Origin: Alphaproteobacteria bacterium
GTDB taxonomy: Bacteria; Pseudomonadota; Alphaproteobacteria; GCA-2746255
DNA: 64,000 nt
Direction: 5' to 3'
NCBI GenBank assembly: GCA_965249135.1
Contig: OZ252220.1
Span: forward strand, 1,344,001 to 1,408,000
The position numbers and the translations under genes are program-made. Under the pieces are notes generated by a model. It ran no database searches. It had not been told where the DNA came from and saw only the letters and a list, made by a program, of their open reading frames with translations. Below, piece by piece: positions 1 through 16,904 of the stretch; positions within the stretch are counted from its first letter, which is position 1, and each line of letters opens with the position of its first letter.

Positions 1-220
1 CCACCTCGCGCGCCGCCAGCACGCAGGAATGAATGCGCGAATAGAACCGCTCGTATTTGACCGGGTCCGAATCGCGAAGCGTAAGCTCGGTGACACCGTA
101 ATAATGGCCGGTCTCTTCCGTAAGCCGGTCCCGCTGCTCCAGCATCTCGCGCAGCGTAAGGCCGCCTTCTCCGGAAGCGGCTGCCTCTTCGCGCCGAATG
201 GGCTTCGTGACTACGTTCAT
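1..220 (-). CDS. 5' part (runs off window) of hydantoinase B/oxoprolinase-family protein resembling acetone carboxylase alpha subunit (AcxB-like)
   Basis: Not in ORF track. Hand translation from ATG at 220: MNVVTKPIRREEAAASGEGGLTLREMLEQRDRLTEETGHYYGVTELTLRDSDPVKYERFYSRIHSCVLAAREV, open to the window edge, with purine-rich RBS (AAGGGGG) upstream. Resembles the acetone carboxylase alpha N-terminus as I recall it (TLKEHRDRL...TGRYAGLKTLELREREPILYNKLFSRLRAGVVDARE). Confidence 0.75.
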   Translation of the reverse strand, partial: MNVVTKPIRREEAAASGEGGLTLREMLEQRDRLTEETGHYYGVTELTLRDSDPVKYERFYSRIHSCVLAAREV

Positions 221-372
221 GGATGCCCCCTTCGCTCCCCCGAGCGGCCGGGCGCCGCCCGAAAACCAAGGCGCTCATGCTCCCACAAATGGGGGAAGGC
301 GGCAAGGCATCCTGCGCGAGGGGCGCACGCTTTAAGCTTGCGATACTTAAGGAAATTTACCACTTTGGCCCG

Positions 373-1548
373 ATGGCGAGCGCGGCAAGCCCGTTGTTTT
401 CCCCCTTCGAGCTCAGAGGCATCCGGCTTTTGAACCGCCTCGTTCTCTCGCCGATGGTCGTCTACTACGCCAAGGACGGCTTCTCGAACGACCTGCTTTT
501 CTCCCATCTTTCGAAATTCGTGATCGGCGGCTTCGGCCTGGTGTTCACGGAAGCCGCCGCCGTCGAGGAGCGCGGCCGCATCAGCCATGGCGATCTCGGC
601 ATCTGGAAGGACGAACACATCGCGCCTTTGCGCCGTTTTACGGATTTCGCCCGCGCCCATGGGGCGCTTTCCGGATTGCAGCTTGCCCATGCCGGCCACA
701 AGGGGAGCTACCAGCGCGCCTATGAGGGCTATCGGCCGTTGGGAGAGAAGGACGCCCAACGCGGCGATCCTCCTTTCGAAACGATCGCGCCTTCACCGAT
801 GGCTTACGGAGCAGGCGTGCCGGCCCCGCGCGCCATGACGCTTGCCGACATCGCAGACGTGCAGGAAGCCTGGCGCAAGGCGGCGCTCCGCGGCGTTGCG
901 GCCGGCTTCGACGTGCTCGAGATTCACGGAGCGCATGGTTATTTGATCCATGAATTTCTTTCGCCGCTTACCAACGAACGAAGCGACGGTTACGGCGGCG
1001 ACCTTAAGGGACGCATGCGGTTTGGGCTGGAAATCGCGGAGAGCCTTCGCGAGGTGTGGCCCGACGACAAGCCGGTTTCCTTTCGGTTCTCCGTCATCGA
1101 CGGCGTCGACAAGGGGTGGGGAATCCAGGATTCGATTGCGTTCGTAAACGAATTAAAGAAGATCGGCATCGATCTGGTGGACTGCACGTCGGGCGGCACC
1201 GCGAAGCTTACGCGCGAAGACGCGCTTCCCCGCGAGCCCGGCTTTCACGTGCCATTGGCCGAAATCTTGCGCAAGGAAACCGGCATGGCGACGATCGTCG
1301 TCGGGCTGATCACGGAACCGGCCCAGGCAGACGCCATCCTGCGCGATGGGCGGGCCGACCTGATCGCCATTGGACGGGCGGCGCTGGACGATCCGAACTG
1401 GCCCTTGCATGCCTCCCTCGAGCTTGGTTCAAAGCTCGACTATTCGGCCTGGCCGCCGGAATATGGCTGGTGGCTGGAACGCCGCGCGAAGACGGCCGCG
1501 AAGATGGCCGCGAAGATGGAAGTCGAGCCGAAGACGAACAAGAAGTGA
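373..1548 (+). CDS. NADH:flavin oxidoreductase, old yellow enzyme of the YqjM/XenA type
   Basis: PLFSPFELRGIRLLNRLVLSPM, QLAHAG, catalytic EIHGAHGYLIHEFLSP, NERSDGYGG; ATG at 373 preferred over ORF start 223. Confidence 0.9.
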   Translation: MASAASPLFSPFELRGIRLLNRLVLSPMVVYYAKDGFSNDLLFSHLSKFVIGGFGLVFTEAAAVEERGRISHGDLGIWKDEHIAPLRRFTDFARAHGALSGLQLAHAGHKGSYQRAYEGYRPLGEKDAQRGDPPFETIAPSPMAYGAGVPAPRAMTLADIADVQEAWRKAALRGVAAGFDVLEIHGAHGYLIHEFLSPLTNERSDGYGGDLKGRMRFGLEIAESLREVWPDDKPVSFRFSVIDGVDKGWGIQDSIAFVNELKKIGIDLVDCTSGGTAKLTREDALPREPGFHVPLAEILRKETGMATIVVGLITEPAQADAILRDGRADLIAIGRAALDDPNWPLHASLELGSKLDYSAWPPEYGWWLERRAKTAAKMAAKMEVEPKTNKK

Positions 1549-1556
1549 CTAAAGTT

Positions 1557-3515
1557 TTATGCCTTCGCCTTCGCGCGCAATTCCTCAAGCGCGGCCGGGT
1601 TCACGAGCGAGCTTAAGTCGCCCGGCTCAACGCCTAGATAGGTGGCGCGCACGACGCGGCGCATGATCTTCATCGAGCGCGTCTTCGGAAGGTCGGAAAC
1701 GAAGACGACGTCCTTGGGGCGGAACGCCTTGCCGTGGCCGGTGACGACCGCCTCGATCAAGGTGGTCTTTAAGTCCTCGTCCGCCGTTATGCCTTCGCCC
1801 GGCACGCAGACGCAGACGACGGCCGATCCTTTGATTTCGTCCGGCACGCCGATGGCGGCGGCCTCGCGAATGAGGCCGGTTTCCAGCACGATGCCCTCGA
1901 TCTCGGCCGGGCCCGTCCGCTTGCCGGCGACTTTAAGGGTATCGTCCGAGCGGCCAAGGACGTACCACATGCCGTCTTCGTCGATCGCCGACCAGTCGCC
2001 ATGCCGCCACAGACCTGGAAAGGTGCGCCAGTAGGTGTCGAGGTAGCGTTCCGGATCCTTCCACAGCCCCCGGGTGAGACCGATCGAGGGAAGGTTCATC
2101 ACCAGCTCGCCGACCTGGCCGGATGCGATCGGCTTTCCCTCCTCATCGACGACGCTGGCCCCCATCGCCGGCAGGGGGGCGTTGAAGGAGCGGGGCTTCA
2201 AGGGGCGGGTGACGATGCTGCCGATGATCCCACCACCGATTTCGGTGCCGCCGGAATAATTCAGGATCGGTACCTTCTGCTTGCAGACATGGGCGAAGAA
2301 CCAGTGCCATGCATCCGGCGTCCACGGCTCGCCGGTGGTGACCGTGATGCGAAGCCGGGAGAGATCGTAGTGTTCGACGACGTCCGTCCCTTGCGCCATG
2401 AAGATGCGGACGATGGTCGGCGCGATCCCCAAATAGCTGACCCGATAGTCCTGCATCAGGCGCCAGATGCGCCCCTGGTCCGGATAGTCGGGCGTGCCTT
2501 CGGCCAGGATGAGCGTGGCACCCATCGCACCGGCGAGCAGGATCTGGAAGGGACCGACGATCCAGCCCATGTCCGTCATCCAAAGCAGGCGATCGCTTTC
2601 CTTGAAGTCCTGACAGAGCACGAGGTCGATGATGATCTTCGTATAAAGGCCGCAATGGGTATGGACGGTTCCCTTCGGCTTGCCGGTCGTGCCGGAGGTA
2701 TGGACGACCATGAGGGTGGCTTCCGCATCCACGGGTTCCGTCGGCGCCTCCATCGGCGCATCGGCCAGAAGTTCGTGCCACCAATGGTCGCGTGTCTTGT
2801 CCCATGGCACCGGATCGTCGAGATGTTTGAAGACGACGACGTCGGTGACGCTTGGGATGTCGGCAAGGGCCGCATCGAGGGTCGCCTTCATCGGCACGCG
2901 TTTGCCGCGACGAAGGGCGCCATCCACCGCGATCACCGCCTTCGCCTCGCAATCATTGAGACGCACGGCGATCGCCTGCTTGCCGAAGCCGGAGAAGAGC
3001 GGCACGACGATGCCGCCTATCTTGGCGATGGCAAGGAAGGCGGCCGCGACCTCGAGGCCGAGCGGCATGAAAAGGCCGATCGCATCCCCCGGTCCAAGCC
3101 CCAATCGGCGAAGTGCGGTGGCAAGGCGCGAGACTTCCGCGTCGTATTCCGCATAGGTCCATTTGCGCTTGCGCCCATCCTCGCCTTCCCAGACGAGCGC
3201 ATCCTTGTTCCAGATTGCCGTATCGCGGTGCTTGTCGAGCGCGTTCAGCACGACGTTCGTCGTGCCGCCGACGCACCAACGCGCGTGCTCGATGCCTCCT
3301 GAGGTGTCGAGAATCTGCGTATAGGGTTGAAAGAAGCGAATGCCGTAATGGCGGATGACGGCGTCGTTGAACCATTCCGGGTCTTCGTTCGAGCGCGCAA
3401 GCAGCGCCGCAAAGTCGGGCAGGTTTTCCGCCCGCAGAAAGGCGGTGAGGTTGCTTTTCTCCTGGATCTCCGGCGATGGCCGCCAGGCGATCGGTTCCGT
3501 TGCAAAATCTTCCAC
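1557..3515 (-). CDS. AMP-forming acyl-CoA synthetase (acetyl-CoA synthetase-like; substrate uncertain)
   Basis: AMP-binding HTSGTTGKPKG, GEP, YSGGTE, GRSDD, C-terminal LPKTRSMKIMRR. Confidence 0.9.
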   Translation of the reverse strand: MEDFATEPIAWRPSPEIQEKSNLTAFLRAENLPDFAALLARSNEDPEWFNDAVIRHYGIRFFQPYTQILDTSGGIEHARWCVGGTTNVVLNALDKHRDTAIWNKDALVWEGEDGRKRKWTYAEYDAEVSRLATALRRLGLGPGDAIGLFMPLGLEVAAAFLAIAKIGGIVVPLFSGFGKQAIAVRLNDCEAKAVIAVDGALRRGKRVPMKATLDAALADIPSVTDVVVFKHLDDPVPWDKTRDHWWHELLADAPMEAPTEPVDAEATLMVVHTSGTTGKPKGTVHTHCGLYTKIIIDLVLCQDFKESDRLLWMTDMGWIVGPFQILLAGAMGATLILAEGTPDYPDQGRIWRLMQDYRVSYLGIAPTIVRIFMAQGTDVVEHYDLSRLRITVTTGEPWTPDAWHWFFAHVCKQKVPILNYSGGTEIGGGIIGSIVTRPLKPRSFNAPLPAMGASVVDEEGKPIASGQVGELVMNLPSIGLTRGLWKDPERYLDTYWRTFPGLWRHGDWSAIDEDGMWYVLGRSDDTLKVAGKRTGPAEIEGIVLETGLIREAAAIGVPDEIKGSAVVCVCVPGEGITADEDLKTTLIEAVVTGHGKAFRPKDVVFVSDLPKTRSMKIMRRVVRATYLGVEPGDLSSLVNPAALEELRAKAKA

Positions 3516-3547
3516 GCGTGGCGTCCTTCTTTACTTGCCCGATCCGC

Positions 3548-4651
3548 TCACGCCGCCCCGGATGTCTCCAGCGCCGGATAGTCCGTGTAGCCCTTCGCAT
3601 CCCCCCCATAGAAGGTGGCAGGGTCCGCTTCGGCGAGGGCCGCCCCCAGCTCAAGCCGATGGACAAGATCGGGGTTGGCGAGAAAGGGGCGTGCGAAGGC
3701 GACCAGATCGGCGCGGCTTTCCGCGATGGCGGCCTCGGCGCGCGCGCCGTCATAGCCGCCATTCGCCAGATAGGGCCCATTGAAGGCCTCGCGCATGGCC
3801 GGCCAGTCGAAGGCGGCGGCTTCGCCGACCAGGTTCACCTCGACGACGTGGAGATAGGCGAGCTTCTGCCTGCCAAGCATGGAGGCGATGGCCGGGAAGG
3901 TCGTCTCGGGCGCGCTGTCCTTTATATCGTTGAAGGCATTGACCGGCGAAAGCCGCACACCGATGCGGTCCGCACCCCACACATCTGCGACGGCTTCGAC
4001 CACGTCGTGCAGAAGCCGCGCGCGGTTTATCAGCGAACCACCGTAACGGTCTTCCCGGTGGTTCGTGCCGTCGCGCAGGAACTGGTCGAGCAGGTAGCCA
4101 TTCGCCGCGTGGATTTCGACGCCGTCGAAGCCCGCCTGCTTGGCGTTTTCGGCGGCCTTTCGGAATTGCGCGAGGATGCCGGGGATCTCGTCGGTGTTAA
4201 GCGCCCTGGGCGTCACGAAAGGTTGCGGGCCGTCATAGGTGATCGCCTCTCCTTGCGCGCGGATGGCGGAAGGGGCTACGGGAAGCTCGCCGTCCGGCTG
4301 AAGCGAAGGGTGCGAGATGCGCCCGACATGCCAAAGCTGCAGGAAGATGCGCCCGCCTTCCTCATGCACGGCGTCCGTCACGCCCCGCCAGCCCGCCACC
4401 TGTTCCGCCGAATGGATGCCAGGCGTCGCCGGATAGCCGAACCCTTGCGTCGAGATTTGCGTTGCCTCCGTGATGATCAGCGCCGCATTTGCGCGCTGCC
4501 GGTAATAGGTGACGTTTAAGTCTTGGGGCACGTTGCCGGGCCCGGCGCGGTTCCGCGTCATCGGCGCCATGACGATGCGATGGGGAAGTTTGAGCGGTCC
4601 CAATTGCAGCGGCGTGAAAAGATGGGGAAAGGGCTGCTTCGTCATCGTCAT
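3548..4651 (-). CDS. Alkene reductase, classical old yellow enzyme (NemA-like)
   Basis: RIVMAPMTRNRA, QLWHVGRISH, EIHAANGYLLDQF, TFYGG..GYTDYP. Confidence 0.92.
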   Translation of the reverse strand: MTMTKQPFPHLFTPLQLGPLKLPHRIVMAPMTRNRAGPGNVPQDLNVTYYRQRANAALIITEATQISTQGFGYPATPGIHSAEQVAGWRGVTDAVHEEGGRIFLQLWHVGRISHPSLQPDGELPVAPSAIRAQGEAITYDGPQPFVTPRALNTDEIPGILAQFRKAAENAKQAGFDGVEIHAANGYLLDQFLRDGTNHREDRYGGSLINRARLLHDVVEAVADVWGADRIGVRLSPVNAFNDIKDSAPETTFPAIASMLGRQKLAYLHVVEVNLVGEAAAFDWPAMREAFNGPYLANGGYDGARAEAAIAESRADLVAFARPFLANPDLVHRLELGAALAEADPATFYGGDAKGYTDYPALETSGAA

Positions 4652-5400
4652 GCCGCCGTGTAGCCGCCGTCGACGACGAACTCGGCGCCATCGACGTAGG
4701 AGGATTCGTCGGAAGCAAGGAAAAGAACCACGTTTGCCACTTCCTCCGGCTTACCGGCGCGGCCTAAGATGGTCGGGCCAAGGATATGCTTTTCCAGTTC
4801 CGGATCGTCGCTGATGGCGGCCGTCATCGGCGTCTCAATAAGGCCCGGGTGCACGGAATTCGAACGGATGTTGTGGGCTGCGTATTCCACGGCGACGGAT
4901 TTCGTAATCAACCGCACGCCGCCTTTCGAGGCCTGGTAGGCGGCCGCGTTGGCGACCCCGATCATGCCGTACATCGAGGAGATGTTGATGATGGAGCCGG
5001 CTCCTGCCTTCTTCATGGCAGGCAGGATGGCCTTGCAGCCAAGAAAGACGCCCCGCAGATTGACCGCAAGGGTGCGATCGAATTCGTCGGCGGAGGTTTC
5101 CTGGATCGGTTTGTAGATGAGGATGCCGGCATTGTTGACCAGCACGTCGACCTTGCCGTACTCGCCGATCGCCTTGTCGACGACGGCTTGCCATTCGCCT
5201 TCGCTGGTCACGTCCAAGGGTAGGAAGATGGCCTCGCCGCCTTCTTGCTTGATGGCCTCGACGACGGCCTTGCCTTCCTTGTCGGCGATGTCGGTGACGA
5301 CGACCTTCGCCCCTTCGCTCGCCAGGACCTGCGCATCGGCCTTGCCCATGCCCATGGCGCCGCCCGTAACCAGCGCGACCTTGCCTTCTACGCGCCCCAT
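4648..5400 (-). CDS. Short-chain dehydrogenase, cyclopentanol/cyclohexanol dehydrogenase-like (CpnA/ChnA-like)
   Basis: TGGAMGMG NAD-binding, NNAG, YQASK catalytic; MGRV..KV.LVTGGAMGMG start, GPT.LGRA and VVDGGYTA end match Comamonas CpnA as recalled. Confidence 0.8.
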   Translation of the reverse strand: MGRVEGKVALVTGGAMGMGKADAQVLASEGAKVVVTDIADKEGKAVVEAIKQEGGEAIFLPLDVTSEGEWQAVVDKAIGEYGKVDVLVNNAGILIYKPIQETSADEFDRTLAVNLRGVFLGCKAILPAMKKAGAGSIINISSMYGMIGVANAAAYQASKGGVRLITKSVAVEYAAHNIRSNSVHPGLIETPMTAAISDDPELEKHILGPTILGRAGKPEEVANVVLFLASDESSYVDGAEFVVDGGYTAA

Positions 5401-5450
5401 GTCTTCCCCCCTTATCCGTTCTTTTTTAGCGTTGGCCCTGTCTTAAAACT

Positions 5451-6386
5451 TCAAGCGCTCCGCCGGACGATGTTCGGCATGCTGACGACGTCCTGGCATT
5501 CGCCATAGCCGATCCGGCCGTCCATGTTCCATTCCATCAGCGTGGCGAAATCGCAGGTGTTCGGCCAACACATCCACGGGAATCCCGTCATCGCACTGCC
5601 CGTGAAGTGGTAGGTCCGATCTTGGACGTCGGTCACCTCGACGTTCATGCCGACCTGCATGAGGCCATCCCGCGTCGAGTGGCCCTTGCCGCTCTTTAGC
5701 CCGTAGACCTTTCCGTTCTCCAGCACGTAGCCATGGGCAAACGGGCTCAACACCTCGGCATTTAAGGGATCGAAGCCGAAGATGCAGTGGATGGTCATCT
5801 CGCGGCCGAAGCTCACATGGAACCAGCTGGCGGAAGGGTAGTCGGCTTCCGGCCGCGGTCCCCAACTGTGATCCATCGTCGAGACGGAATCGATCTTGTA
5901 GCTTTTGCCTTTTACCTTGAGCGTGCCCTTGAAATGGCCCGTCTGGTCGAAGTGGCCCTTGATCGGCTTTTCCTTCGGCGCGTTGGGGTCCATCTCCGGG
6001 TCCGTGATGTCATAGGGCGGCATGAGCCCTTCGAACTCGACGTGAAACTCGGTGTCGTTCTTTCCCTTATAGGTCAACAGATAGTCCATCGGCGGGTTCA
6101 CGGCCTTTACGGAAAGGCCGTTGCCGAGCGCGTAGTCCCCAACCTTCTCCGGCAAGGGCAGGTGGGCGTGCTCGTCGTAGTAGAGCGCCTCGATGCGGTG
6201 CTTCGGGAAGCCCTGGACGACCTGGACGCTGGAAAGCACGACGCCAAGGGTGGGACGCGAGAGAAAATAGATGCCGACGTTGATCTTCTCTTCCGGGATA
6301 TTGAAGCCGAAGAAGTTCGTCTCCGCCCAAAGCGGATCGCCATCCGCCGGGATGTGAAATTCCATGATGTCGTTTACCGAGATCAT
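5451..6386 (-). CDS. Hypothetical beta-rich protein with W.E..F and DHSWGPR motifs (possible AttH/CrtC/tocopherol cyclase-like fold)
   Basis: 311 aa, good RBS (AGGGGAGG), co-oriented between badI and the SDR; DHSWG motif. Confidence 0.75.
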   Translation of the reverse strand: MISVNDIMEFHIPADGDPLWAETNFFGFNIPEEKINVGIYFLSRPTLGVVLSSVQVVQGFPKHRIEALYYDEHAHLPLPEKVGDYALGNGLSVKAVNPPMDYLLTYKGKNDTEFHVEFEGLMPPYDITDPEMDPNAPKEKPIKGHFDQTGHFKGTLKVKGKSYKIDSVSTMDHSWGPRPEADYPSASWFHVSFGREMTIHCIFGFDPLNAEVLSPFAHGYVLENGKVYGLKSGKGHSTRDGLMQVGMNVEVTDVQDRTYHFTGSAMTGFPWMCWPNTCDFATLMEWNMDGRIGYGECQDVVSMPNIVRRSA

Positions 6387-6425
6387 GTTTGCCTCCCCTG
6401 TTTCGCTTCGTTTTCAGTCTCGAAG

Positions 6426-7208
6426 CTATTTCATGAATTTACGGAAATCCGCCTTCCGTTTTTCCAGGAAGGCCTTCACGCCTTCCTGAGATTCTTCGGT
6501 CCCATAGTAAAGGGCGAGGGCCTGCATGCCCAGATTGGCGATGCCGGCGATGTTATCCGTGTCCGCATTGAAGGAACGCTTCGCAATGGCGATCGCGGTT
6601 GGGGACTTGTCCATGATTTCCGCGCACCATTGATCCACTTCTTCGTCCAGCTTGTCGTGGGGCACGACGACATTCACAAGCCCCATCTCAAGGGCCTCCT
6701 TAGCCGTGTAACGCCGGCACAGGTACCAGATCTCGCGCGCCTTCTTCTCGCCGACGAGGCGGGCAAGGTAGGCGGTGCCGTAGCCGGGATCGACGGAACC
6801 CATCTTCGGGCCGACCTGGCCGAACTGGGCCTTCTCGGATGCAATGGTGAGATCGCAGAGCGTGGCGAGCACGTTGCCGCCGCCGATCGCATAGCCCTGA
6901 ACGCGGGCGATGACCGGTTTCGGTGCGATGCGGATGGCGTTTTGAAATTCCTCGATCGGCATGCCGATCGTGCCCTTGCCTTCGTAAGCACCTTCATGGC
7001 CAGACTGATCGCCGCCCGCGCAGAAGGCCTTGTCGCCGGCGCCCGTCAACACGATGACGCCGATCGACTTGTCCCAGCTTGCGCTCGCAAAGGCGTCGAT
7101 CAGTTCATCGACGGTGACGGCGCGAAAGGCGTTCATGCGGTCGGGGCGGTTGATGGTGATCCGCGCCACGCCCGCGTTTACCTCGTAAAGAATGTCCTCA
7201 TAGGCCAT
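6426..7208 (-). CDS. badI: 2-ketocyclohexanecarboxyl-CoA hydrolase (BadI; MenB-like crotonase)
   Basis: AFCAGGDQSGHEGAYEGKGTIGMP, GYAIGGGNVLATLCDLT, GQVGPKMGSVDPGYGTA.LAR.VGEKKAREIWY closely match R. palustris BadI as recalled. Confidence 0.88.
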   Translation of the reverse strand: MAYEDILYEVNAGVARITINRPDRMNAFRAVTVDELIDAFASASWDKSIGVIVLTGAGDKAFCAGGDQSGHEGAYEGKGTIGMPIEEFQNAIRIAPKPVIARVQGYAIGGGNVLATLCDLTIASEKAQFGQVGPKMGSVDPGYGTAYLARLVGEKKAREIWYLCRRYTAKEALEMGLVNVVVPHDKLDEEVDQWCAEIMDKSPTAIAIAKRSFNADTDNIAGIANLGMQALALYYGTEESQEGVKAFLEKRKADFRKFMK

Positions 7209-7350
7209 GATCGCGTCCTTTCTTCCCTCTTGCCATTCTAGCGGGCAATGGGGCCTCGGAAACCCTCTTCCGGCCCCCGATGGCCGCCGAAAGGACCCCT
7301 TAAAAATCCAAGTTTTCTGCCGTTTTTCCGCCTTTCGCCGGAGGATGGGC

Positions 7351-7403: not shown

Positions 7404-8042
7404 GTGCAAATGAATTCACTCAAGGAAAAGAAGGTGGCGACGGCGCGCAAATCCGTCGTCTCGCGGCGCGAGATCCTCGACGCCGCGGCGGCGCTTCTGC
7501 GCACGAAGGGCTACTACGCGACGACCCTTCGCGACATCGCGTCTGCCGTCGGCATGAAGGCGGGCAGCGTCTACTACCACTTCGATTCGAAGGAACAGAT
7601 TCTCGAAGAAGTGCTGGACATCGGCATTCAGTCCGTCTTCGACGCGGTGCGCGCGGGCGTCGATGCGCTGCCGAAGACGGCGCCCTGGCGTGAGCGCTTT
7701 CGGGTCGCGTTGCACGCACACCTTGCTTCGCTCTTTCAGTTGGGAGACTACACGTCTGCGAACATTCGCGTCTTCGGTCAGGCGCCGCGCCACATCCACG
7801 AACGCCACATGCGCATTCGCCGGGCTTACGAAGATTATTGGAAGGACATGTACCGCGAAGCCCAGGCGGCGGGGGAAATTCGCGGTGAGGTGAATCTGAC
7901 GGCGCTTCGCCTGCTGGTCTTCGGCGCCATGAACTGGGCGGTCGAATGGTACCGGCCGGGCAAGGAAACCATCGCGACCTTGGCCCAGGAATATACGCGC
8001 ATCCTTTGCGACGGCATTACGCCCAAGAAGACTTCCAAATAG
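7404..8042 (+). CDS. TetR/AcrR family transcriptional regulator (KstR2/AtuR-like)
   Basis: HTH: ILDAAAALLRTKGYYATTLRDIASAVGMKAGSVYYHFDSKEQIL; C-terminal NWAVEWYRP. Confidence 0.93.
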   Translation: MQMNSLKEKKVATARKSVVSRREILDAAAALLRTKGYYATTLRDIASAVGMKAGSVYYHFDSKEQILEEVLDIGIQSVFDAVRAGVDALPKTAPWRERFRVALHAHLASLFQLGDYTSANIRVFGQAPRHIHERHMRIRRAYEDYWKDMYREAQAAGEIRGEVNLTALRLLVFGAMNWAVEWYRPGKETIATLAQEYTRILCDGITPKKTSK

Positions 8043-8097: not shown

Positions 8098-9699
8098 ATG
8101 GCTTTGATCGAAACAAAAATCGATACGCGCTCCGATGAATTTCGGAAGAACAAGGCGGCCTATGAGGCGATGGTCGAAACCCTTCGCGAACGCCAAGCCT
8201 ATGCGGTTGCGGGCGGCCGCGACAAGCAGATCGCGCGCAACTATGAGCGCGGTAAATTCCTGCCCCGCGAGCGGATCGACATGCTGGTCGATCCCCATAC
8301 GTCCTTCCTGGAATTCTCGACGCTCGCCGCCTGGGGCAAATACAACAACGAAGCGCAAAGTGCCGCCATCGTGACCGGGATCGGCATCGTCTGCGACGTG
8401 CCTTGCGTGATTATCGCGAACGACCCGACGGTCAAAGGGGGCACGCTCTTTCCGGAGACCGTGAAGAAGCACATCCGCGCTCAGGACATCGCCACCCAGC
8501 ACAAATTGCCGATGATCTACCTGGTCGATTGCGGCGGCGCCTTCCTCCCCCACCAGGACGGGGTCTTCCCGGGCCGCGACCATTTCGGGCACACCTTCTA
8601 CAACCAGGCCCGCAGCTCCGCCCATGGCCTGCCCCAGCTTTCCGCCGTCTTCGGCAGCTCGACGGCGGGCGGCGCCTACATCCCGGCCCTTTCCGATTAC
8701 GTCGTCATGGTCAAGGGAGCGGGCCGCATTCACCTCGGCGGCCCCCAGATCGTGCGGGCGGCGATCAAGGAAATCGTCGACCGGGACACGCTCGGCGGCG
8801 CCGAGGTGCACACGCGCATCTCCGGCGTGTCGGACGATTTCACCGAAGGCGAGGCGGAGGCGCTTGCCAAGCTTCGCTCGGCCGTCGCCAGGCTGAACTG
8901 GCAACGGACGTCGCACCTAAAGATGCAAACGCCAAAACCGCCCCGTTACCCGGCGGAAGAGATGCTCGGCATCGTGCCCCAGGATCGCATGCAGGTCTTC
9001 GACATGAACGAGATCCTAAACCGTCTCATCGACAACAGCGACTTCGAGGCGTTCAAACCGCATTTCGGCGAGGAACTCATCTGCGGGTTCGCCCATCTTC
9101 ACGGGCATCCGATCGGCGTGCTCGCCAATAACGGAGTCCTTTTTTCGGAATGCGCCTTGAAGGGGACCCATTTCATCGAACGATGCTGCCAGCGAAACAT
9201 TCCGCTTGTTTTCCTCCACAACGTCACCGGTTTCATGGTCGGCACGAAGGCCGAGGAAGGCGGCATCGCAAAACACAGCGCAAAACTCGTCTACGCGGTC
9301 GCCAACGCCCGGGTGCCTCGGCTTTCCGTCATCATCGGCAGTTCCTGCGGGGCCGGAAATTACGGCATGTGCGGGTCCGGCATGCGGCCGAATTTCCTGT
9401 TCGCCTGGCCCACGGCCTATGTCGCGACGATGTCGGCGGACACCGCCGTCATCGTCATGCAGGACGTAAAAAAAGCCAGCATGGGTGCAAGCAAGGTGAC
9501 GGAGAAGGAATTGGCGGCCATCGAGCAACGGACCCGCAAGCAATATGCCGAACAGGCGGATCCCTACTACATCACGGCGCGGGTCTGGGACGACGGTTTG
9601 ATCGAGCCCACGAAGACCCGCGACGTACTCGGCCTTTGCTTAAGCCTCGGGGCGGCGCTGGAGCCGGAGACGGGCTACCACCCCGTCTACCGGATGTGA
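8098..9699 (+). CDS. Acyl-CoA carboxylase carboxyltransferase subunit (methylcrotonyl-/geranyl-CoA carboxylase beta-like, LiuB/AtuC)
   Basis: RGKFLPRERI, ANDPTVKGG, GSSTAGGAY, GAGNYGMCG, ARVWDDGLI, ends VYRM. Confidence 0.9.
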   Translation: MALIETKIDTRSDEFRKNKAAYEAMVETLRERQAYAVAGGRDKQIARNYERGKFLPRERIDMLVDPHTSFLEFSTLAAWGKYNNEAQSAAIVTGIGIVCDVPCVIIANDPTVKGGTLFPETVKKHIRAQDIATQHKLPMIYLVDCGGAFLPHQDGVFPGRDHFGHTFYNQARSSAHGLPQLSAVFGSSTAGGAYIPALSDYVVMVKGAGRIHLGGPQIVRAAIKEIVDRDTLGGAEVHTRISGVSDDFTEGEAEALAKLRSAVARLNWQRTSHLKMQTPKPPRYPAEEMLGIVPQDRMQVFDMNEILNRLIDNSDFEAFKPHFGEELICGFAHLHGHPIGVLANNGVLFSECALKGTHFIERCCQRNIPLVFLHNVTGFMVGTKAEEGGIAKHSAKLVYAVANARVPRLSVIIGSSCGAGNYGMCGSGMRPNFLFAWPTAYVATMSADTAVIVMQDVKKASMGASKVTEKELAAIEQRTRKQYAEQADPYYITARVWDDGLIEPTKTRDVLGLCLSLGAALEPETGYHPVYRM

Positions 9700-9704
9700 A
9701 CGCG

Positions 9705-10495
9705 ATGGCGTACGAGACGATCCGATACGAGACGGACGACCGCGGTGTGTGCCGGCTGACGCTGGCGCGTGCCTCCGTTCACAACGCGATGAATGCGGAG
9801 CTCATCGCAGAAATGAGGGACGCGGCGAAGCGGATCGCGAAGGACGAAAGTGTGCGCGCCGTCGTGCTGACCGGCGAGGGGGAAAGCTTCTGCGCCGGTG
9901 GGGATTTGCGCTGGATGCAGGCGAACGTGAATGCGACGCGCGAAGAGCGCATGGCGGCGGCGGGCGAGATCGCGGAGATGCTGTTTGCGCTGGATACGTT
10001 GCCCAAGCCGCTCATCGGGCGGATCAACGGACCGGCCTATGGCGGGGGGACGGGTTTAATCTCCGTCTGCGACGTGGCCATTGGGGTCGCAGGCGCCCGG
10101 TTCGGGCTGACGGAAGTCCGGCTTGGCCTCGTGCCGGCGACGATTTCGCCTTACGTCGTCCGGCGAATGGGGCATGCGAATGCGCGGCGGGTCTTTTTCA
10201 GCGGCCGGCTTTTCCAGGCAGACGAGGCAAAGGCGCTCAACCTCTTAAGCGAGGTCGTCGCGCCCGAAAATCTGGACGCGGCCGTTGATGCAGAGCTTGC
10301 GGCATGCCTTCAAGCCGCCCCCGGCGCGATTGCCGCCACCAAGCGCCTCGTCGATTACGTGGCTCGCCATGGACCGGAAGAGAACCGCACCGCGACGCTA
10401 AACGCACTTGCCGATGTCTGGGAGACGGAGGAAGGCAAGGAAGGGATTGGCACGTTCCTTAAGAAGCAGACGCCTTGGTGGCGGAAGGGAACGTC

Positions 10496-10499
<4 letters not shown>
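9705..10499 (+). CDS. Enoyl-CoA hydratase (methylglutaconyl-/isohexenylglutaconyl-CoA hydratase-like, LiuC/AtuE)
   Basis: FCAGGDL, GPAYGGGTGL, FGLTEVRLGLVPATISPYV; ATG at 9705 after previous stop. Confidence 0.88.
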
Positions 10500-12496
<1,997 letters not shown>

Positions 12497-12517
12497 GCGC
12501 AGGCGCGAGGTAGGGAA

Positions 12518-13669
12518 ATGGAATCGATCTATCAGACGGAAGAGCTGGAACTTTTCCGGGAGCAGTTGCGCCGCTTCATCGAAGAAGAAGTCGAGCCCTT
12601 CGGCGAGGCGTGGGAGGAAACGGGCATGGTGCCTCGCGAGGTCTTAAGAAAGCTTGGCAGCCTCGGTTTCCTAGGCCTCGCCTACTCGGAAAAGTATGGG
12701 GGAGCGGGGCTCGATACGGTGGCGACCGCCATCTTCGCCGAAGAGATGGGCCGTTGCACCTTCGGCGGTTTCCCCGCGACCGTGCTTGTCCATACGGACA
12801 TGGGATCGCCCCATCTCGCCAACGCAGGCTCGGAAGCGCAATTGAAGAAGTACATGCCGCGAATCACGTCCGGCGAATCGATCGCGGCGATCGCGGTCAC
12901 GGAACCGGATGCGGGTTCGGACGTCGCCAATCTTCGCACCCGCGCCGTCCGGGAAGGCGACGTTTACGTGCTTAACGGCACGAAGATGTTCATCACGAAC
13001 GGGATCCATGGCGACCTTTTCTTCGTGGCGGCCCGCACGGACCGCCAAGCGAAGGGATCGCGCGGGATTTCGATGTTCATCGTCGAGAAGGGAACGCCGG
13101 GCTTTCGGGCCGGCCGGCCGCTCAAGAAGCAAGGCTGGTGGTGTTCGGACACGGCCGAACTCATCTTCGAGGACTGCCCCGTGCCGGCCGAGAATCTGCT
13201 GGGCCAAGAGAACGAGGGTTTCTACGCCATCATGAAGAACTTCCAGAACGAGCGCGTCGTGCTTGGCGCCATGGCGATCGGCGCCTCAGACAAGGCGTTG
13301 GAATTGACCCTGGATTACGTCACCACGCGGCGCGCCTTCGGTGGCGTGCTGTTCGACCTGCAGACGATCCGCCAGAAGCTGGCCGAGCTGGCCGGCAAGG
13401 TCGAGGCGGGGCGTCAGCTCGTCTACCACGCCGCCTGGCTGGACGCGGCCGGCCGCGATTGCGTGAAGGAAGTCTCGATGGTAAAGGCGCTGTGCGGCGA
13501 GCTCGTCAACGAGGTCATGTATGCCTGCCAGCAGTTCCATGGGGGGGCTGGATACTTACGCGAAACGCCGATCGAACGCATGGTGCGCGATTCCCGCGTG
13601 CTGGCGATCGGCGGCGGGGCGACGGAGGTGATGCTGGAAGAAGTCGCCAAACGCATGATAACGAACTAG
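12518..13669 (+). CDS. Acyl-CoA dehydrogenase (AtuD-like)
   Basis: IAVTEPDAGSD, NGTKMFITNG, QFHGGAGY, IGGGATEVM. Confidence 0.92.
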   Translation: MESIYQTEELELFREQLRRFIEEEVEPFGEAWEETGMVPREVLRKLGSLGFLGLAYSEKYGGAGLDTVATAIFAEEMGRCTFGGFPATVLVHTDMGSPHLANAGSEAQLKKYMPRITSGESIAAIAVTEPDAGSDVANLRTRAVREGDVYVLNGTKMFITNGIHGDLFFVAARTDRQAKGSRGISMFIVEKGTPGFRAGRPLKKQGWWCSDTAELIFEDCPVPAENLLGQENEGFYAIMKNFQNERVVLGAMAIGASDKALELTLDYVTTRRAFGGVLFDLQTIRQKLAELAGKVEAGRQLVYHAAWLDAAGRDCVKEVSMVKALCGELVNEVMYACQQFHGGAGYLRETPIERMVRDSRVLAIGGGATEVMLEEVAKRMITN

Positions 13670-13688
13670 GTGGCAAAGGGAACCTAAG

Positions 13689-14567
13689 GTGTCAAACGAA
13701 CCATCGGATCCGAACGTCTGGCGCATCGGCCAGTCCGACGAGGAGCTAAGTGCGGCGCCCACCGTCTATAAGGACGACCTCTTCAAGGGCAAGGTCGTGC
13801 TGGTGTCCGGCGCCGGCAGTGGGCTCGGCCGGGGGATTGCAGCACTGTTTGCGCGCCTCGGCGCCCACCTCGTCATCTGCGGACGGGACGAGGAACGCTT
13901 GGCCTCTGCCGCTCGTTTCCTTGCCGGCCTCGGCGCCACCGTGCATGCGAAGATCATGACGATCCGCGACACCGACCAGGTCGAGGAACTGATGGACGAG
14001 GTCTGGGATCGCTTCGGCCGCCTCGACGTGCTGGTTAACAATGCGGGCGGTCAGTATCCGCAAGCTGCGATCGATTTTGCAGACAAGGGCTGGGACGCGG
14101 TCGTGGGCACGAATTTGAGCGGCACCTGGTACATGATGCAGCGCGCAGCACGGCGCTGGCGCGACAACAGCCAGCAGGGAAACATCGTCAACATCGTCGC
14201 CATCCATGAGCGCGGCATGCCGGGCATCGCCCACACGGGCGCCGCGCGTGCCGCCGTTACGAATTTATCGAAGACGCTTGCCGTCGAGTGGGCACCGCTT
14301 GGCATTCGCGTCAACTGCGTGGCACCCGGCACCGTCGCCACGCCGGGCTTTCGCCAGTACCCGCCGGAAGGCGTCGAAAGCTTCCAGCAATGCAACGTGC
14401 AGCGGCATCCGGGCGACATGCACGACGTCGCCCAGGCGGTCGTTTATCTCGCTGCCGAGTCGGGCAAGTTCATCACCGGCGACGTGATCCATGTGGATGC
14501 CGGTCAACGCATGTGGGGCGAGAGCTGGCCGGCCGGCAAACCGGACTATTTCAAGGTCGGCGTGTAA
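13689..14567 (+). CDS. SDR oxidoreductase (AtuB/trans-2-enoyl-CoA reductase-like)
   Basis: SGAGSGLG, NNAGGQY, HTGAARAAV instead of YxxxK, typical of AtuB/PECR-type SDRs. Confidence 0.8.
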   Translation: MSNEPSDPNVWRIGQSDEELSAAPTVYKDDLFKGKVVLVSGAGSGLGRGIAALFARLGAHLVICGRDEERLASAARFLAGLGATVHAKIMTIRDTDQVEELMDEVWDRFGRLDVLVNNAGGQYPQAAIDFADKGWDAVVGTNLSGTWYMMQRAARRWRDNSQQGNIVNIVAIHERGMPGIAHTGAARAAVTNLSKTLAVEWAPLGIRVNCVAPGTVATPGFRQYPPEGVESFQQCNVQRHPGDMHDVAQAVVYLAAESGKFITGDVIHVDAGQRMWGESWPAGKPDYFKVGV

Positions 14568-14570
14568 GCG

Positions 14571-15692
14571 ATGTTGTTCAGCGCGCTTTCCGGCATCCGG
14601 GTGCTCGACCTCGCCCAGTACATCCCCGGACCCTATGCGACGCTGATGCTCGCCGATTTCGGGGCGGACGTGCTTAAACTCGAGCCGCCAGAGGGCGATC
14701 CCATGCGCCGGATGGCGCCTTTGGACAAGGACGGCATCTCGCTTACCTACAAGGCGTTCAACCGCAATAAAAGATCGGTCGCGCTCGATCTGAAAACCGA
14801 CATCGGCAAGCGGTCCTTCGAGGGTTTGCTCGAAGGCGCGGACGTGTTGCTTGAATCCTTCCGGCCGGACGTGATGGCCCGGCTTGGTTTTTCGCGGGAA
14901 CGCATCGCTGCGATCAATCCCCGCCTCATCCACTGTGCGCTGACCGGCTATGGGCAGGCGGGGCCGCTTGGGCACGCCTCCGGCCACGACGTGAATTACA
15001 TGGCGCTGATGGGCGGCCTCGATGCCTCGGGTGTTGAGGCGCGCCCGGTCCTTGCCTTTCCTCCCGTCGCCGACCACGCGTCCGCCATGCACACGGCAAT
15101 TACCCTGCTCGCCGCCCTCATCGCCCGCGAAAAGACCGGCTTTGGTGCCTTCCTTGACGTGAGCATCGCCGAGGCCGTCCTTCCCTGGCAACGGATGGTG
15201 TTCGCGGCCATGGAGGCGGCAGGCGAGGACGTCCGGCGGACCGGACATCTCTTGAATGGCGGCGCCGCCTGTTACCAGGTCTATGAGACGAAGGACAAGG
15301 GCTTCGTCACCTTGGGCGCGCTCGAAGAAAAGTTCTGGCGGAATTTCTGCGAGGCGATAGAGAGGCCGGATTGGACGGCGCGGCAGTTCGAGCCGATGCC
15401 GCAAACAAGCCTGATTGTGGCGTTGCGGGAGAAGTTCGCGTCGGCCACACTGGCCGAGTGGGAGGCCTTGCTTTCTAAGTGCGATTGCTGCTTCCAGGTG
15501 GTGACCCCTGCTTCGGCGTTGCCTGCACATCCCCAGCTTCGCGCCCGCGGTTTCCTGAAGGAGGCGCAACAGGATGGAAGAGCCTTCACGGAAATCCTTT
15601 TCCCGGCCCGCGTCGACGATAAGCCGCCGGACGTGCGAAGGGAGTGGCGGGAGGTGAACGCCGAAGAAGCGCTTCATGGGTGGAAGCCGTAG
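14571..15692 (+). CDS. Family III CoA transferase, alpha-methylacyl-CoA racemase-like
   Basis: LSGIRVLDLAQYIPGP, NRNKRSVALDLK, FRPDVMARLG, GHDVNY and PVAD motifs. Confidence 0.85.
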   Translation: MLFSALSGIRVLDLAQYIPGPYATLMLADFGADVLKLEPPEGDPMRRMAPLDKDGISLTYKAFNRNKRSVALDLKTDIGKRSFEGLLEGADVLLESFRPDVMARLGFSRERIAAINPRLIHCALTGYGQAGPLGHASGHDVNYMALMGGLDASGVEARPVLAFPPVADHASAMHTAITLLAALIAREKTGFGAFLDVSIAEAVLPWQRMVFAAMEAAGEDVRRTGHLLNGGAACYQVYETKDKGFVTLGALEEKFWRNFCEAIERPDWTARQFEPMPQTSLIVALREKFASATLAEWEALLSKCDCCFQVVTPASALPAHPQLRARGFLKEAQQDGRAFTEILFPARVDDKPPDVRREWREVNAEEALHGWKP

Positions 15693-15716
15693 AAGAAACA
15701 TCGAAGGATAAGCGGC

Positions 15717-16904
15717 GTGGCGGGCAAATCCGAAATCGAGCCTTTTACGATTCACGTCGAGGACGCCGTCCTCGAAGATTTGAAGGGGCGGCTTAAGCGG
15801 ACGCGCTGGCCAAGCGCACCGAAGAATGCTGGTTGGGAATCCGGCACGCCGGTCGCCTATATGAAGGAGCTCGTCGATTACTGGCTGCACGCCTATGACT
15901 GGCGGAAGTGGGAGGCCGAGTTCAACCGTTTCGATCATTTTCGCGTGGCCGTGAGCGACGAGCGCATCCACTTCATCCATGAAAAGGGAAGTGGGCGTAA
16001 GCCGCTGCCGCTGATCCTAAGCCATGGCTGGCCGGGCTCTTTCTTTGAATTTTTGGAAGTGATCGAGCCGCTTGCCCATCCGGAACGCTGCGGCGGCGAC
16101 ATCGAAGACGCCTTTGACGTCATCGTCCCTTCCCTTCCTGGCTACGGCTTCTCTTCCATTCCGGAAAACCCGCCGGGTCCGCGCGCAACGGCCGAACTTT
16201 GGCACGAACTGATGACGGAGAAGCTTGGGTTTGCAAGCTACGCCGCCCAAGGCGGCGACTGGGGGGCGTTCATCACCGCCTGGCTTGCCTTCAATCACGC
16301 GGAAGAACTCGTCGGCATCCACTTGAACCGCATCGGCCCCGATAGCGGGCCCGAGGTGAGCGATCCCTCCATGAGCGAGGAAGAGAAGGCCTGGATCGAG
16401 GCCGTCCGCAAGCGGCGGAAAGAGGTTGCCGCCTATAGCCAGCAGCACACGACGCGTCCCCAGAGTCTGGCCTATGGGCTGAATGATTCGCCGGCCGGGC
16501 TTGCCGCCTGGATCGTCGAGAAGTTCTATGCCTGGAGCGACATCGGCGGCGATATCGAATCCGTCTACACGAAAGACCAGCTGTTAACGAACGTGATGAT
16601 TTACTGGGTGACGGGAACGATCAACTCCGCGAACTGGTTCTATCGCGCCGTACAGCTTGCCGGGGACCGGCGGCTGCCCGAGGGAAAGCGCATCGAGGTG
16701 CCGACCGGTTTCGCCTATTTCCCGGTCGACCTTCACCCCCAGCCGCCGCGGTCCTGGTGGGAGCGGGCCTACAACCTCACCCGCTGGACGGAGATGGGAA
16801 AGGGTGGCCACTTCGCCGCGCTGGAACGGCCCCAGGCGCTGGTCGAAGAAATCCGGGCCTTCTTCCGGCCCTTACGCGGGAAGCCTGCGGAAACCCTTCG
16901 TTAA
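15717..16904 (+). CDS. Epoxide hydrolase (alpha/beta hydrolase, microsomal EH type)
   Basis: EHN-type N-terminus, HGWPGSF, QGGDWG nucleophile, GGHFAALE. Confidence 0.9.
   Translation: MAGKSEIEPFTIHVEDAVLEDLKGRLKRTRWPSAPKNAGWESGTPVAYMKELVDYWLHAYDWRKWEAEFNRFDHFRVAVSDERIHFIHEKGSGRKPLPLILSHGWPGSFFEFLEVIEPLAHPERCGGDIEDAFDVIVPSLPGYGFSSIPENPPGPRATAELWHELMTEKLGFASYAAQGGDWGAFITAWLAFNHAEELVGIHLNRIGPDSGPEVSDPSMSEEEKAWIEAVRKRRKEVAAYSQQHTTRPQSLAYGLNDSPAGLAAWIVEKFYAWSDIGGDIESVYTKDQLLTNVMIYWVTGTINSANWFYRAVQLAGDRRLPEGKRIEVPTGFAYFPVDLHPQPPRSWWERAYNLTRWTEMGKGGHFAALERPQALVEEIRAFFRPLRGKPAETLR

Follow-up and report, generated by a model that had tools for sequence, protein, structure and literature searches.

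The window is a stretch of 64,000 nucleotides from an alphaproteobacterium of the GCA-2746255 lineage, at G000:C1:1344001-1408000 of a genome that comprises one contig of 2.12 Mb with an estimated completeness of 98.75% (handles with G denote genomes, those with L loci). At its left end is a gene cluster for which an initial annotation proposed the oxygen-independent breakdown of cyclic alcohols and ketones, by carboxylation of the ketone and ring cleavage by the hydrolase BadI. We compared the cluster with protein family models, structures and related loci. All seven genes of the proposal are where that annotation had placed them. The cluster, with the parts that lie left of the window, its Old Yellow Enzymes (OYE1 and OYE2), its short-chain dehydrogenase/reductase (SDR) and its right-hand neighbors, reads as follows.

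1-220, minus strand, continuing to G000:C1:1341986: N-terminus (73 codons) of the carboxylase alpha-like subunit, a Hydantoinase_B protein (HydB) of 744 amino acids (aa), PF02538
G000:C1:1341409-1341975: carboxylase gamma-like subunit, 188 aa, PF08882 at 133.8 bits
G000:C1:1339175-1341388: Hydantoinase_A subunit (HydA), 737 aa, PF01968/PF19278/PF05378
223-1548 (maximal open reading frame, ORF), plus strand: OYE2, Old Yellow Enzyme-type ene-reductase, divergent from the carboxylase, PF00724 at 223 bits
1557-3515, minus strand: Acs-like AMP/acyl-CoA ligase, 652 aa, with an ACAS_N domain; proposed beta-keto-acid CoA ligase
3548-4651, minus strand: OYE1, NemA-type ene-reductase, NF007899 at 403.2 bits (cut-off 403)
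4648-5400, minus strand: SDR of the secondary-alcohol dehydrogenase type, from models and structures
5451-6386, minus strand: DUF7065/DUF7064 protein, from Pfam and a predicted structure
6426-7208, minus strand: BadI-type crotonase, first gene of the operon, TIGR03210 at 463.5 bits (cut-off 467.6)
7404-8042, plus strand: TetR-family regulator, divergent from badI, from a domain match
8098-16904, plus strand: Atu/Liu-like acyl-CoA carboxylase cluster, given as context, its membership of the pathway being uncertain

The genes from badI to the ligase gene (6426-7208 to 1557-3515) all lie on the minus strand, with successive gaps of 39, 50, -4 and 32 bases. No terminator-like site falls between them: the six in the region, where 8.4 are expected by chance, are all intragenic. 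In the window and in L119, scans for promoters and terminators gave no more than expected from shuffled sequence. Contigs from other samples, ~98-99% identical, span the ligase, OYE1 and SDR genes (2671-5262) and the OYE1, SDR, DUF and BadI genes (4070-6753); since these independent contigs bridge the junctions, the gene arrangement is not an assembly artefact. Many sequencing runs show a word share of 0.64, which is due to 1-2% sequence divergence and not to a deletion variant. One metatranscriptome library yielded short contigs only (1-156, 6295-6512 and 7121-7279), and DNA may occur in such libraries, so we make no claim of expression or co-transcription.

The carboxylase, its ligase and the accompanying enzymes

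The gene at 1-220 had been read as acetone-carboxylase-alpha-like, with the suggestion that AcxA- and AcxC-like partners be looked for left of the window. Both points are borne out. The gene encodes the Hydantoinase_B subunit of a three-subunit carboxylase, 32% identical to Xanthobacter AcxB, and genes for a gamma subunit and a Hydantoinase_A subunit lie at G000:C1:1339175-1341975. The three genes are adjacent on the same strand, and their domains score 198.6 (PF02538), 235.6 (PF01968), 213.4 (PF19278), 97.7 (PF05378) and 133.8 bits (PF08882). The ketone carboxylase is complete, because the gamma and Hydantoinase_A subunits follow Hydantoinase_B. Passages of PMC5543143 give the metal ligands of Xanthobacter AcxB as Glu89, His150, Asp153 and His175. 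They align to E88, H150, D153 and H175 of the window protein, and all four are invariant in the aligned relatives (27 of 27). Judged by its sequence, the enzyme is complete and looks functional.

Its relationship to the acetone carboxylases is distant. The Xanthobacter AcxB used for comparison matches PDB entries 5m45/5svb at ~1640 bits. The alpha-like subunit of the window matches the solved Xanthobacter acetone carboxylase alpha chain, 5svb, over its full length at 370 bits, and relatives of its own clade score at least 914 bits. With 32% identity, 370 bits and AcxB on a long separate branch, it did not qualify as an ortholog of the biochemically validated acetone carboxylases. Alpha-subunit relatives (51-99% identity) are plentiful in genomes and metagenomes, under generic names only. 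We surveyed 80 genome loci with such a relative, 78 of which have a qualifying match in our comparison table; on every contig long enough to show them, the three carboxylase genes are found together. Our tree has 73 rows, namely G000, two congeners, 69 of the surveyed genome loci (truncated genes led us to drop 11 of the 80) and, as outgroup, Xanthobacter AcxB. It resolves the relatives into two subclades, one with 23 rows (SH-aLRT support 98) and the other with 49. Each of the 13 carboxylases with an Acs-like ligase gene within 10 kb falls in the smaller subclade, and none among the other 49 rows. The tree is a quick one with several long branches, so only this broad two-subclade split is reliable. 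As placed by these comparisons the carboxylase is a member of a sister subclade of acetone carboxylase, not an acetone enzyme. Deep AcxB clades of this kind are called uncertain in specificity in a 2026 paper (PMC13714315).

The ligase resembles acetyl-CoA synthetase (Acs) and falls below the cut-offs of the models that come nearest: 547.3 bits (cut-off 657) and 536.5 bits (cut-off 724.95) for two Acs models, 385.6 bits (cut-off 639) for acetoacetate-CoA ligase and 115.1 bits (cut-off 792.3) for AliA (TIGR03208). In alignment to the Acs structures 8rpk and 5ifi, the second Trp of the Acs motif TWWQTE, which we take to be the residue that closes the pocket to acetate, is replaced by Gly422 (motif YSGGTE). 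Gly-Gly at the Trp position is found in the window ligase and in 20 of 20 distinct relatives checked. The acyl pocket is predicted to be enlarged, since Gly replaces the Trp of the acetate pocket. The initial annotation had named acetate or cyclohexanecarboxylate as substrates that would undo its proposal; the scores under the Acs and AliA cut-offs and the Gly at the pocket argue that the enzyme is a ligase for neither. Its gene adjoins the carboxylase genes, badI, or both in many lineages.

Best models and structures for the SDR are dehydrogenases of alicyclic or secondary alcohols, namely ChcB1 (265 bits), Rv2002, an R-specific alcohol dehydrogenase and the cyclohexanol dehydrogenase 4ure. 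Its orthologs, at 56-60% identity, occur within Cycloclasticus-type carboxylase modules. It is not an ortholog of BadH, another outcome against which the proposal had been hedged, for it scores 159.5 bits against the TIGR03206 cut-off of 431.2.

Both ene-reductases have the Oxidored_FMN domain at full length (OYE1, 283.7 bits; OYE2, 223 bits) and belong to the Old Yellow Enzyme family. The true start of OYE2 is probably later than 223, since its Pfam match begins at residue 58. OYE1 orthologs follow badI in G002 and L144 and are found in the carboxylase module of G001. OYE2 orthologs (48-77% identity) are encoded beside the carboxylase in L003, L039, L042, L058, L060, L119, L126, L144 and L145, and most ligase-linked carboxylases are accompanied by such orthologs or by OYE1-like genes (~40%). 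L003, a contig of the window's own genus, breaks off within the ligase gene; in L058, OYE2 is present without a qualifying HydB match.

We are fairly confident that these genes encode a ketone carboxylase for a substrate other than acetone together with a dedicated beta-keto-acid ligase, fed by the SDR and the ene-reductases. Two other readings bear on this module. An ordinary acetone or butanone carboxylase with an acetoacetyl-CoA synthetase, the other genes being bystanders, would agree with the subunit composition and metal ligands of acetone carboxylase and with the ligase's match to acetoacetate-CoA ligase models; some Cycloclasticus-type organisms are also thought to use short alkanes. 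We nevertheless think it very unlikely, in view of the separate subclade at 32% identity to AcxB, in deep clades of doubtful specificity, of a ligase below the acetoacetate-ligase cut-off, and of conserved OYE and SDR partners and a BadI, none of which has a role in acetone use. The Hydantoinase subunits might otherwise form an ATP-dependent lactam or hydantoin hydrolase of the caprolactamase/oxoprolinase type, the cluster serving a cyclic amide, as the 344 bits of HydA on a caprolactamase alpha model would allow. This is extremely improbable: scores stay far below the caprolactamase cut-offs of 1000 bits, the metal ligands of the carboxylase are in place, and the gene between those of the two large subunits encodes a gamma subunit found specifically in ketone carboxylases.

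The DUF7065/DUF7064 protein has a confidently predicted structure (mean predicted local distance difference test, pLDDT, 95.2) with a double beta-barrel. Its best Foldseek match is a 25-phosphosteroid lyase, 9g4c (template modeling score, TM, 0.70; E 2.6e-13; 14% identity), and next come kievitone hydratase, AttH and fungal Diels-Alderases; the TM to 7a0t is 0.57. The barrel fold is common to the lyase, kievitone hydratase and AttH and this protein; identity to them is just 11-15% and the cluster has no kinase gene. From the modeled fold we suspect that the protein is a lyase or hydratase whose substrate is hydrophobic and perhaps isoprenoid. The gene is confined, among the congeners, to G000 and G001, and none of the 78 genome loci with a qualifying match encodes a DUF7064 protein.

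Six more paralogs of this protein (41-47% identical) are encoded in two tandem triplets, at G000:C1:132237-135361 and 466381-469434 (L142 and L143), for a total of seven copies. In L142 (G000:C1:127001-146000) the triplet is flanked on one side by MMPL, DUF1302 and DUF1329 genes, perhaps for uptake of hydrophobic compounds. On its other flank are genes for a protein with a mobile domain of phosphoenolpyruvate (PEP) utilizers, an 834-aa protein with PPDK_N and PEP-utilizers domains, three copies of a ~440-480-aa unannotated family and a MeMO_Hyd_G + EthD fusion. This run of genes may be an ATP-dependent activation and elimination system. We considered the PPDK-like protein as a 25-hydroxysteroid kinase and dropped the idea, since the real kinase is described as a 40-kDa phosphotransferase in an excerpt of PMC8449060.

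A further observation concerns the carboxylase in two Xanthobacter genomes (L135 and L136, also L073 and L074). Beside the canonical acxB they have a fragment 76-79% identical to HydB residues 20-244. It contains one in-frame TGA and is therefore probably a gene remnant.

Linkage of BadI to the ligase and carboxylase

The best NCBIfam model for the crotonase is BadI, whose equivalog cut-off it misses by 4 bits; MenB models score 365.9 and 333.9 bits. It is 67-75% identical to BadI homologs encoded beside or near AliB in G048, G015, G008, G085, G094, G096 and G107, and those of G085, G094, G096 and G107 exceed the cut-off. The PDB set searched contains no BadI structure, and its best-matching chains are MenB.

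The initial annotation had remarked that the classical partners of BadI are missing. Inside the window they are, while around it some are present: the genome encodes an AliB/BadJ ortholog (TIGR03207, 578.5 bits, cut-off 575.35) 18 kb leftward and, 270 kb away at G000:C1:1613227, an AliA-like ligase (708 bits, cut-off 792). None of nine ORFs scanned around the AliA-like gene is BadH- or BadK-like, so it completes no classical cluster. A BadH ortholog was not found in the genome (best score 227.5 bits, cut-off 431.2). From the carboxylase leftward there are genes for a GntR/UTRA regulator, a family III CoA-transferase, an acyl-CoA dehydrogenase (ACAD), a MaoC hydratase, a 677-aa FadH-like OYE/flavoprotein and the AliB/BadJ ortholog. 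No thiolase gene lies less than 30 kb from the window start in G000, nor is there one in L003, L116-L119, L126 or any congeneric locus compared, the nearest homologs being more than 110 kb away, so that BadI is the sole beta-ketoacyl-CoA-cleaving enzyme near the ligase.

The gene order varies within the genus.

G000: badI-DUF-SDR-OYE1-ligase, then OYE2, then the carboxylase
G005: badI-ligase, then OYE2, then the carboxylase
G003: badI-ligase, then OYE2 and the first 141 HydB codons at the contig end
G002: badI-OYE1 adjoining FadH and AliB; carboxylase not found (genome 91% complete)
G001: whole module (DUF-SDR-OYE1-ligase, OYE2, carboxylase) on a different contig from badI
G004: carboxylase and ligase on a 10-kb contig; BadI ortholog not found (genome in 300 contigs)

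Two further metagenome contigs of the genus have badI-OYE1-ligase (L144) and badI-ligase (L145). Altogether the ligase gene is co-oriented and closely spaced behind badI in five contigs of the genus. At the site that the carboxylase module occupies in G000, G001 has an interval of ~1.5 kb between the FadH-like gene and badI. It contains a 472-aa ORF without Pfam match (L117:9691-11109), 60-67% identical to an unannotated multi-copy family at G000:C1:136444-143751. We ruled out that this interval is a remnant of the module, since it encodes a member of this ~470-aa family.

We scanned metagenome contigs with an alignment of ten ligases, obtaining 80 metagenome loci with the following content.

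BadI ortholog of at least 64% identity: 9 of 80
More distant BadI-like crotonase (45-49%): 14 of 80
Carboxylase subunits: 20 of 80
Carboxylase and BadI both: 4 of 80

The most compact arrangement is in L161/L162 (GC fraction 0.59), where HydB, gamma, HydA, ligase (58% identity), BadI (70%) and ACAD genes follow one another on the same strand with gaps of 54, 14, 62, 12 and 181 bases. The BadI scores 433.6 bits on TIGR03210. The HydB shares 91% identity with its counterpart on a gammaproteobacterial genome contig and belongs to another branch of the ligase-linked subclade than the alphaproteobacterial genus, from which we conclude that the three-way linkage arose or was kept in two separate lineages. 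The ACAD gene of L161 is followed, at 14078-15629, by genes for an APH-family phosphotransferase and a DUF6285 protein.

Ligase-BadI pairs without a nearby carboxylase are found in L193, L219, L210 and L221/L222, the last being divergently oriented. The pair of L193 and L219 shows identities of 57% and 71%. Downstream of the pair, L193 has a family III CoA-transferase, and L219 an HpcH-like lyase, a MaoC hydratase, an ACAD and family III CoA-transferases. In L210 the pair is part of a classical cluster with an AliA-type ligase, AliB and a crotonase, and its BadI scores 527.8 bits, above the cut-off. As this cluster has its own AliA-type ligase, the Acs-like ligase does not have the AliA function. 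A more distant form of the pair, with ligases at 41-42% identity that keep the Gly-Gly and BadI-like crotonases at 46-49%, is adjacent in 12-14 low-GC contigs (L191, L194, L196, L201, L203-L205, L207, L215-L217 and L220). These crotonases fail the BadI model at E<=1e-85. In one of them, L203 (GC fraction 0.31), ApbA/PanE-type reductase and ABC-transporter genes precede the pair and TRAP-transporter genes follow it.

The combination, which the initial annotation had wished to see conserved elsewhere, is thus present in three of the five congeneric genomes, in two metagenome contigs of the same genus and, independently, in the gammaproteobacterial L161/L162. At the outset a mobile ketone module lying next to badI by chance had seemed at least as likely as a functional link; the L161/L162 operon and the recurrent ligase-BadI pairs outweighed it.

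A developed form of that idea holds that two unrelated pathways lie side by side. The module would convert ketones without a ring, for instance methyl ketones released when alkanes or isoprenoids are broken down, to a 3-oxoacyl-CoA for cleavage by a thiolase encoded elsewhere, and BadI would act only with AliB, the FadH-like reductase and MaoC on an alicyclic acyl-CoA. The known enzymes of the carboxylase family use methyl ketones, and the position of the module varies in the genus, being away from badI in G001, with a badI and no carboxylase found in G002. Gammaproteobacterial modules without BadI carry thiolases, together with genes for a sigma-54 activator, DUF35 and SCPx-type thiolases, a crotonase, ACADs, an electron-transfer flavoprotein and a family III CoA-transferase (possibly a racemase). 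On the other side stand the compact L161/L162 run, which arose or was kept separately from the alphaproteobacterial one, the ligase-BadI pairs in at least four further lineages, the co-oriented ligase close behind badI in five contigs of the genus and the lack of a thiolase within 30 kb. We think two pathways somewhat unlikely on this evidence.

The same gene order would be expected if the pathway is linked and its substrate open-chain, a BadI-type crotonase standing in for a thiolase and hydrolyzing an acyclic 3-oxoacyl-CoA, the product of carboxylase and ligase, to acetyl-CoA and a carboxylate. Claisen and retro-Claisen reactions are catalyzed by MenB/BadI-branch crotonases, and the distant ligase pairs of the low-GC contigs involve BadI-like crotonases below the BadI model. 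Three things make this quite unlikely here: the window BadI is at the equivalog threshold and 67-75% identical to AliB-linked BadI, the ligase-linked BadI of L210 is above the cut-off inside a classical cyclohexanecarboxylate cluster, and hydrolysis would waste the thioester that a thiolase conserves.

A possible carboxylative route for cyclic ketones

Homology establishes the enzyme families, the completeness of the carboxylase, its metal ligands, the altered ligase pocket and the gene order. From these we infer the substrate class, the carboxylation of a ring methylene, the substrate of the ligase and the hand-over to BadI. The resulting route is independent of oxygen and leads from a cyclic ketone through a 2-oxocycloalkanecarboxylate and its CoA ester to ring hydrolysis by BadI; going by sequence comparisons, we judge its chances to be evenly balanced. 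Its steps would be as follows. The SDR would oxidize a secondary alcohol, and OYE1 and OYE2 would reduce enones, both giving a saturated ketone. The DUF7065/DUF7064 protein may hydrate or dehydrate a side group. The three-subunit carboxylase, dependent on ATP and metal, would add CO2 at the carbon next to the keto group, and the Acs-like ligase would trap the unstable beta-keto acid as a CoA ester. BadI would hydrolyze the 2-oxocycloalkane-carboxyl-CoA, opening the ring and giving a dicarboxyl-CoA of the pimelyl-CoA type, which the neighboring ACAD, MaoC hydratase and family III CoA-transferase could degrade by beta-oxidation.

That the ligase makes the substrate of BadI from the product of the carboxylase is the simplest account, as its gene repeatedly adjoins badI and directly follows a ketone carboxylase. 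The ACAD, MaoC and CoA-transferase recur beside the ligase-BadI pair in L219, with an ACAD after BadI in L161, and fit beta-oxidation of the product. Carboxylation of a methylene carbon has a precedent in that 3-pentanone is cited, in passages of PMC13677872, as a substrate of a Rhodococcus enzyme.

A hint of a terpenoid or branched alicyclic ketone as substrate comes from the Atu/Liu-like cluster, from the fold of the DUF protein and from its seven copies in a small genome. We suggest tentatively, and at slightly less than an even chance, that carboxylative ring opening of alicyclic ketones by this carboxylase subclade, the Acs-like ligase and BadI is widespread, with monoterpenoid or naphthenic ketones as possible substrates.

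Several observations weigh against the route. All characterized enzymes of the carboxylase family act, to our knowledge, on open-chain or aryl methyl ketones. The commonest conserved neighbor of BadI is AliB, in the seven genomes listed above and here as well, and BadI could serve a classical acyl-CoA route because AliB, the FadH-like reductase and the MaoC hydratase are encoded 8-18 kb left of badI. AliB-linked BadI loci, which are found across the class and in Cycloclasticus-type genomes, often have a crotonase, a TetR regulator and a nearby carboxyltransferase/biotin carboxylase (CT/BC). No genome locus outside the genus has the link. The best BadI match beside the carboxylase among the 78 loci is 37% identical, under the 40% required of an ortholog, and the short loci L068 and L081 gave none. 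In all, 76 of the 80 genome-derived carboxylase relatives lack a neighboring BadI ortholog, and the remaining four do not show the link beyond the genus either. L071, whose HydB is 91% identical to that of L161, has neither ligase nor BadI within ~10 kb. Within the genus the link is not obligatory, as seen in G001 and G002.

We also ran the BadI model over 49 genomes with carboxylase relatives (50 of the 80 loci being submitted). It matches 30 of 49 at E<=1e-80 and 28 of 49 at 419 bits or more. The BadI-like genes do not lie beside the carboxylase and are at least as frequent in the ligase-free subclade, and the ligase-linked genomes G088, G090, G100 and G105 have no match at E<=1e-80. Being neither adjacent nor enriched in the ligase-linked subclade, the matches make genome-wide co-occurrence of BadI uninformative. 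None of the outcomes that the initial annotation had named as refuting its pathway was obtained. Of the pathway as first proposed, then, the enzyme families, the complete carboxylase and a recurring gene order stand; the case is entirely comparative, AliB is the commonest partner of BadI, and the link is variable.

The cluster has parts in common with several known systems. With AcxABC of Xanthobacter autotrophicus and Aromatoleum aromaticum it shares the three subunit families in one operon, the four metal ligands of the alpha subunit and an expected beta-keto acid product. It differs in its 32% alpha identity, in belonging to a ligase-tied subclade, in OYE, SDR and BadI partners that make no sense for acetone, and in its alpha-gamma-beta gene order. 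For ethylbenzene degradation in Aromatoleum aromaticum, parts of PMC5214803 describe an alcohol dehydrogenase, the ATP-dependent carboxylase Apc, a benzoylacetate-CoA ligase of the same operon and C-C cleavage. The logic is alike: alcohol dehydrogenase to ketone, carboxylase to beta-keto acid, ligase, then C-C cleavage. Apc, however, has five subunits (their models score 51-332 bits here) and its pathway uses thiolase cleavage, whereas the window has a BadI-type hydrolase and an Acs-type ligase. A cyclic substrate and a hydrolytic BadI step that replaces the thiolase would, if confirmed, be the new elements.

The AliA-AliB-BadK-BadH-BadI route of Rhodopseudomonas palustris likewise has a counterpart in the BadI-threshold crotonase, the AliB ortholog in the locus and the expected product of the pimelyl-CoA type. 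Here, in contrast, neither a BadH ortholog nor BadK was identified, the AliA-like gene is 270 kb distant, and the 2-oxo-acyl-CoA is proposed to come from ketone carboxylation and ligation, not from beta-oxidation of a ring acid. Cyclohexanol and cyclohexanone are known to be degraded aerobically through a Baeyer-Villiger lactone and anaerobically through enone hydration and a 1,3-dione hydrolase. Their entry is similar: an alcohol dehydrogenase, and an ene-reductase or dehydrogenase, act on the cyclic alcohol or enone. Ring opening in the proposed route would differ in coming after CO2 addition and CoA activation, giving a C(n+1) dicarboxylate. No Baeyer-Villiger monooxygenase or 1,3-dione hydrolase was recognized in the cluster, and no model search was aimed at them.

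The initial annotation knew of no description of such a route. Our full-text literature search, outside of which lay most subscription journals, also found none, either of ketone carboxylation feeding BadI or of cyclohexanone carboxylation. What is new is how these enzyme families, all of them known, are combined, and the substrate class that this implies. The breakdown of cycloalkanes, naphthenic acids and terpenes commonly passes through cyclic ketones such as cyclohexanone, methylcyclohexanones and monoterpenoid ketones. If true, the route would be a third one for cyclic ketones beside the O2-dependent Baeyer-Villiger and the enone/1,3-dione routes, with CO2 fixed into a dicarboxylate. The acetone/acetophenone carboxylase family would gain a new class of substrates, BadI would have a second way in that does not depend on ring-acid beta-oxidation, and the ligase-linked carboxylase subclade and the Acs-like ligases with enlarged pocket would acquire a function. 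Some deep AcxB clades of marine hydrocarbon degraders would be accounted for, and cyclic ketones could be turned into C(n+1) dicarboxylic acids by biocatalysis. With few components, all of them soluble, the hypothesis lends itself to direct testing in vitro.

Surrounding genes

A tyrosine recombinase gene (Phage_integrase) is found further into the window, at 25967-26911, and is followed by ORFs of 631 and 148 aa without Pfam match at E<=1e-12. The Atu/Liu-like cluster at 8098-16904 encodes a carboxyltransferase, a PRK07468-type crotonase, a biotin carboxylase, an ACAD, an SDR, a second family III CoA-transferase and an epoxide hydrolase; CT/BC genes are also found near AliB-BadI in Cycloclasticus-type genomes. 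Relatives of the TetR regulator (41-50% identity) occur in BadI/AliB loci, adjoining the cluster in G015 and lying ~1.6 kb from aliB in Cycloclasticus-type genomes.

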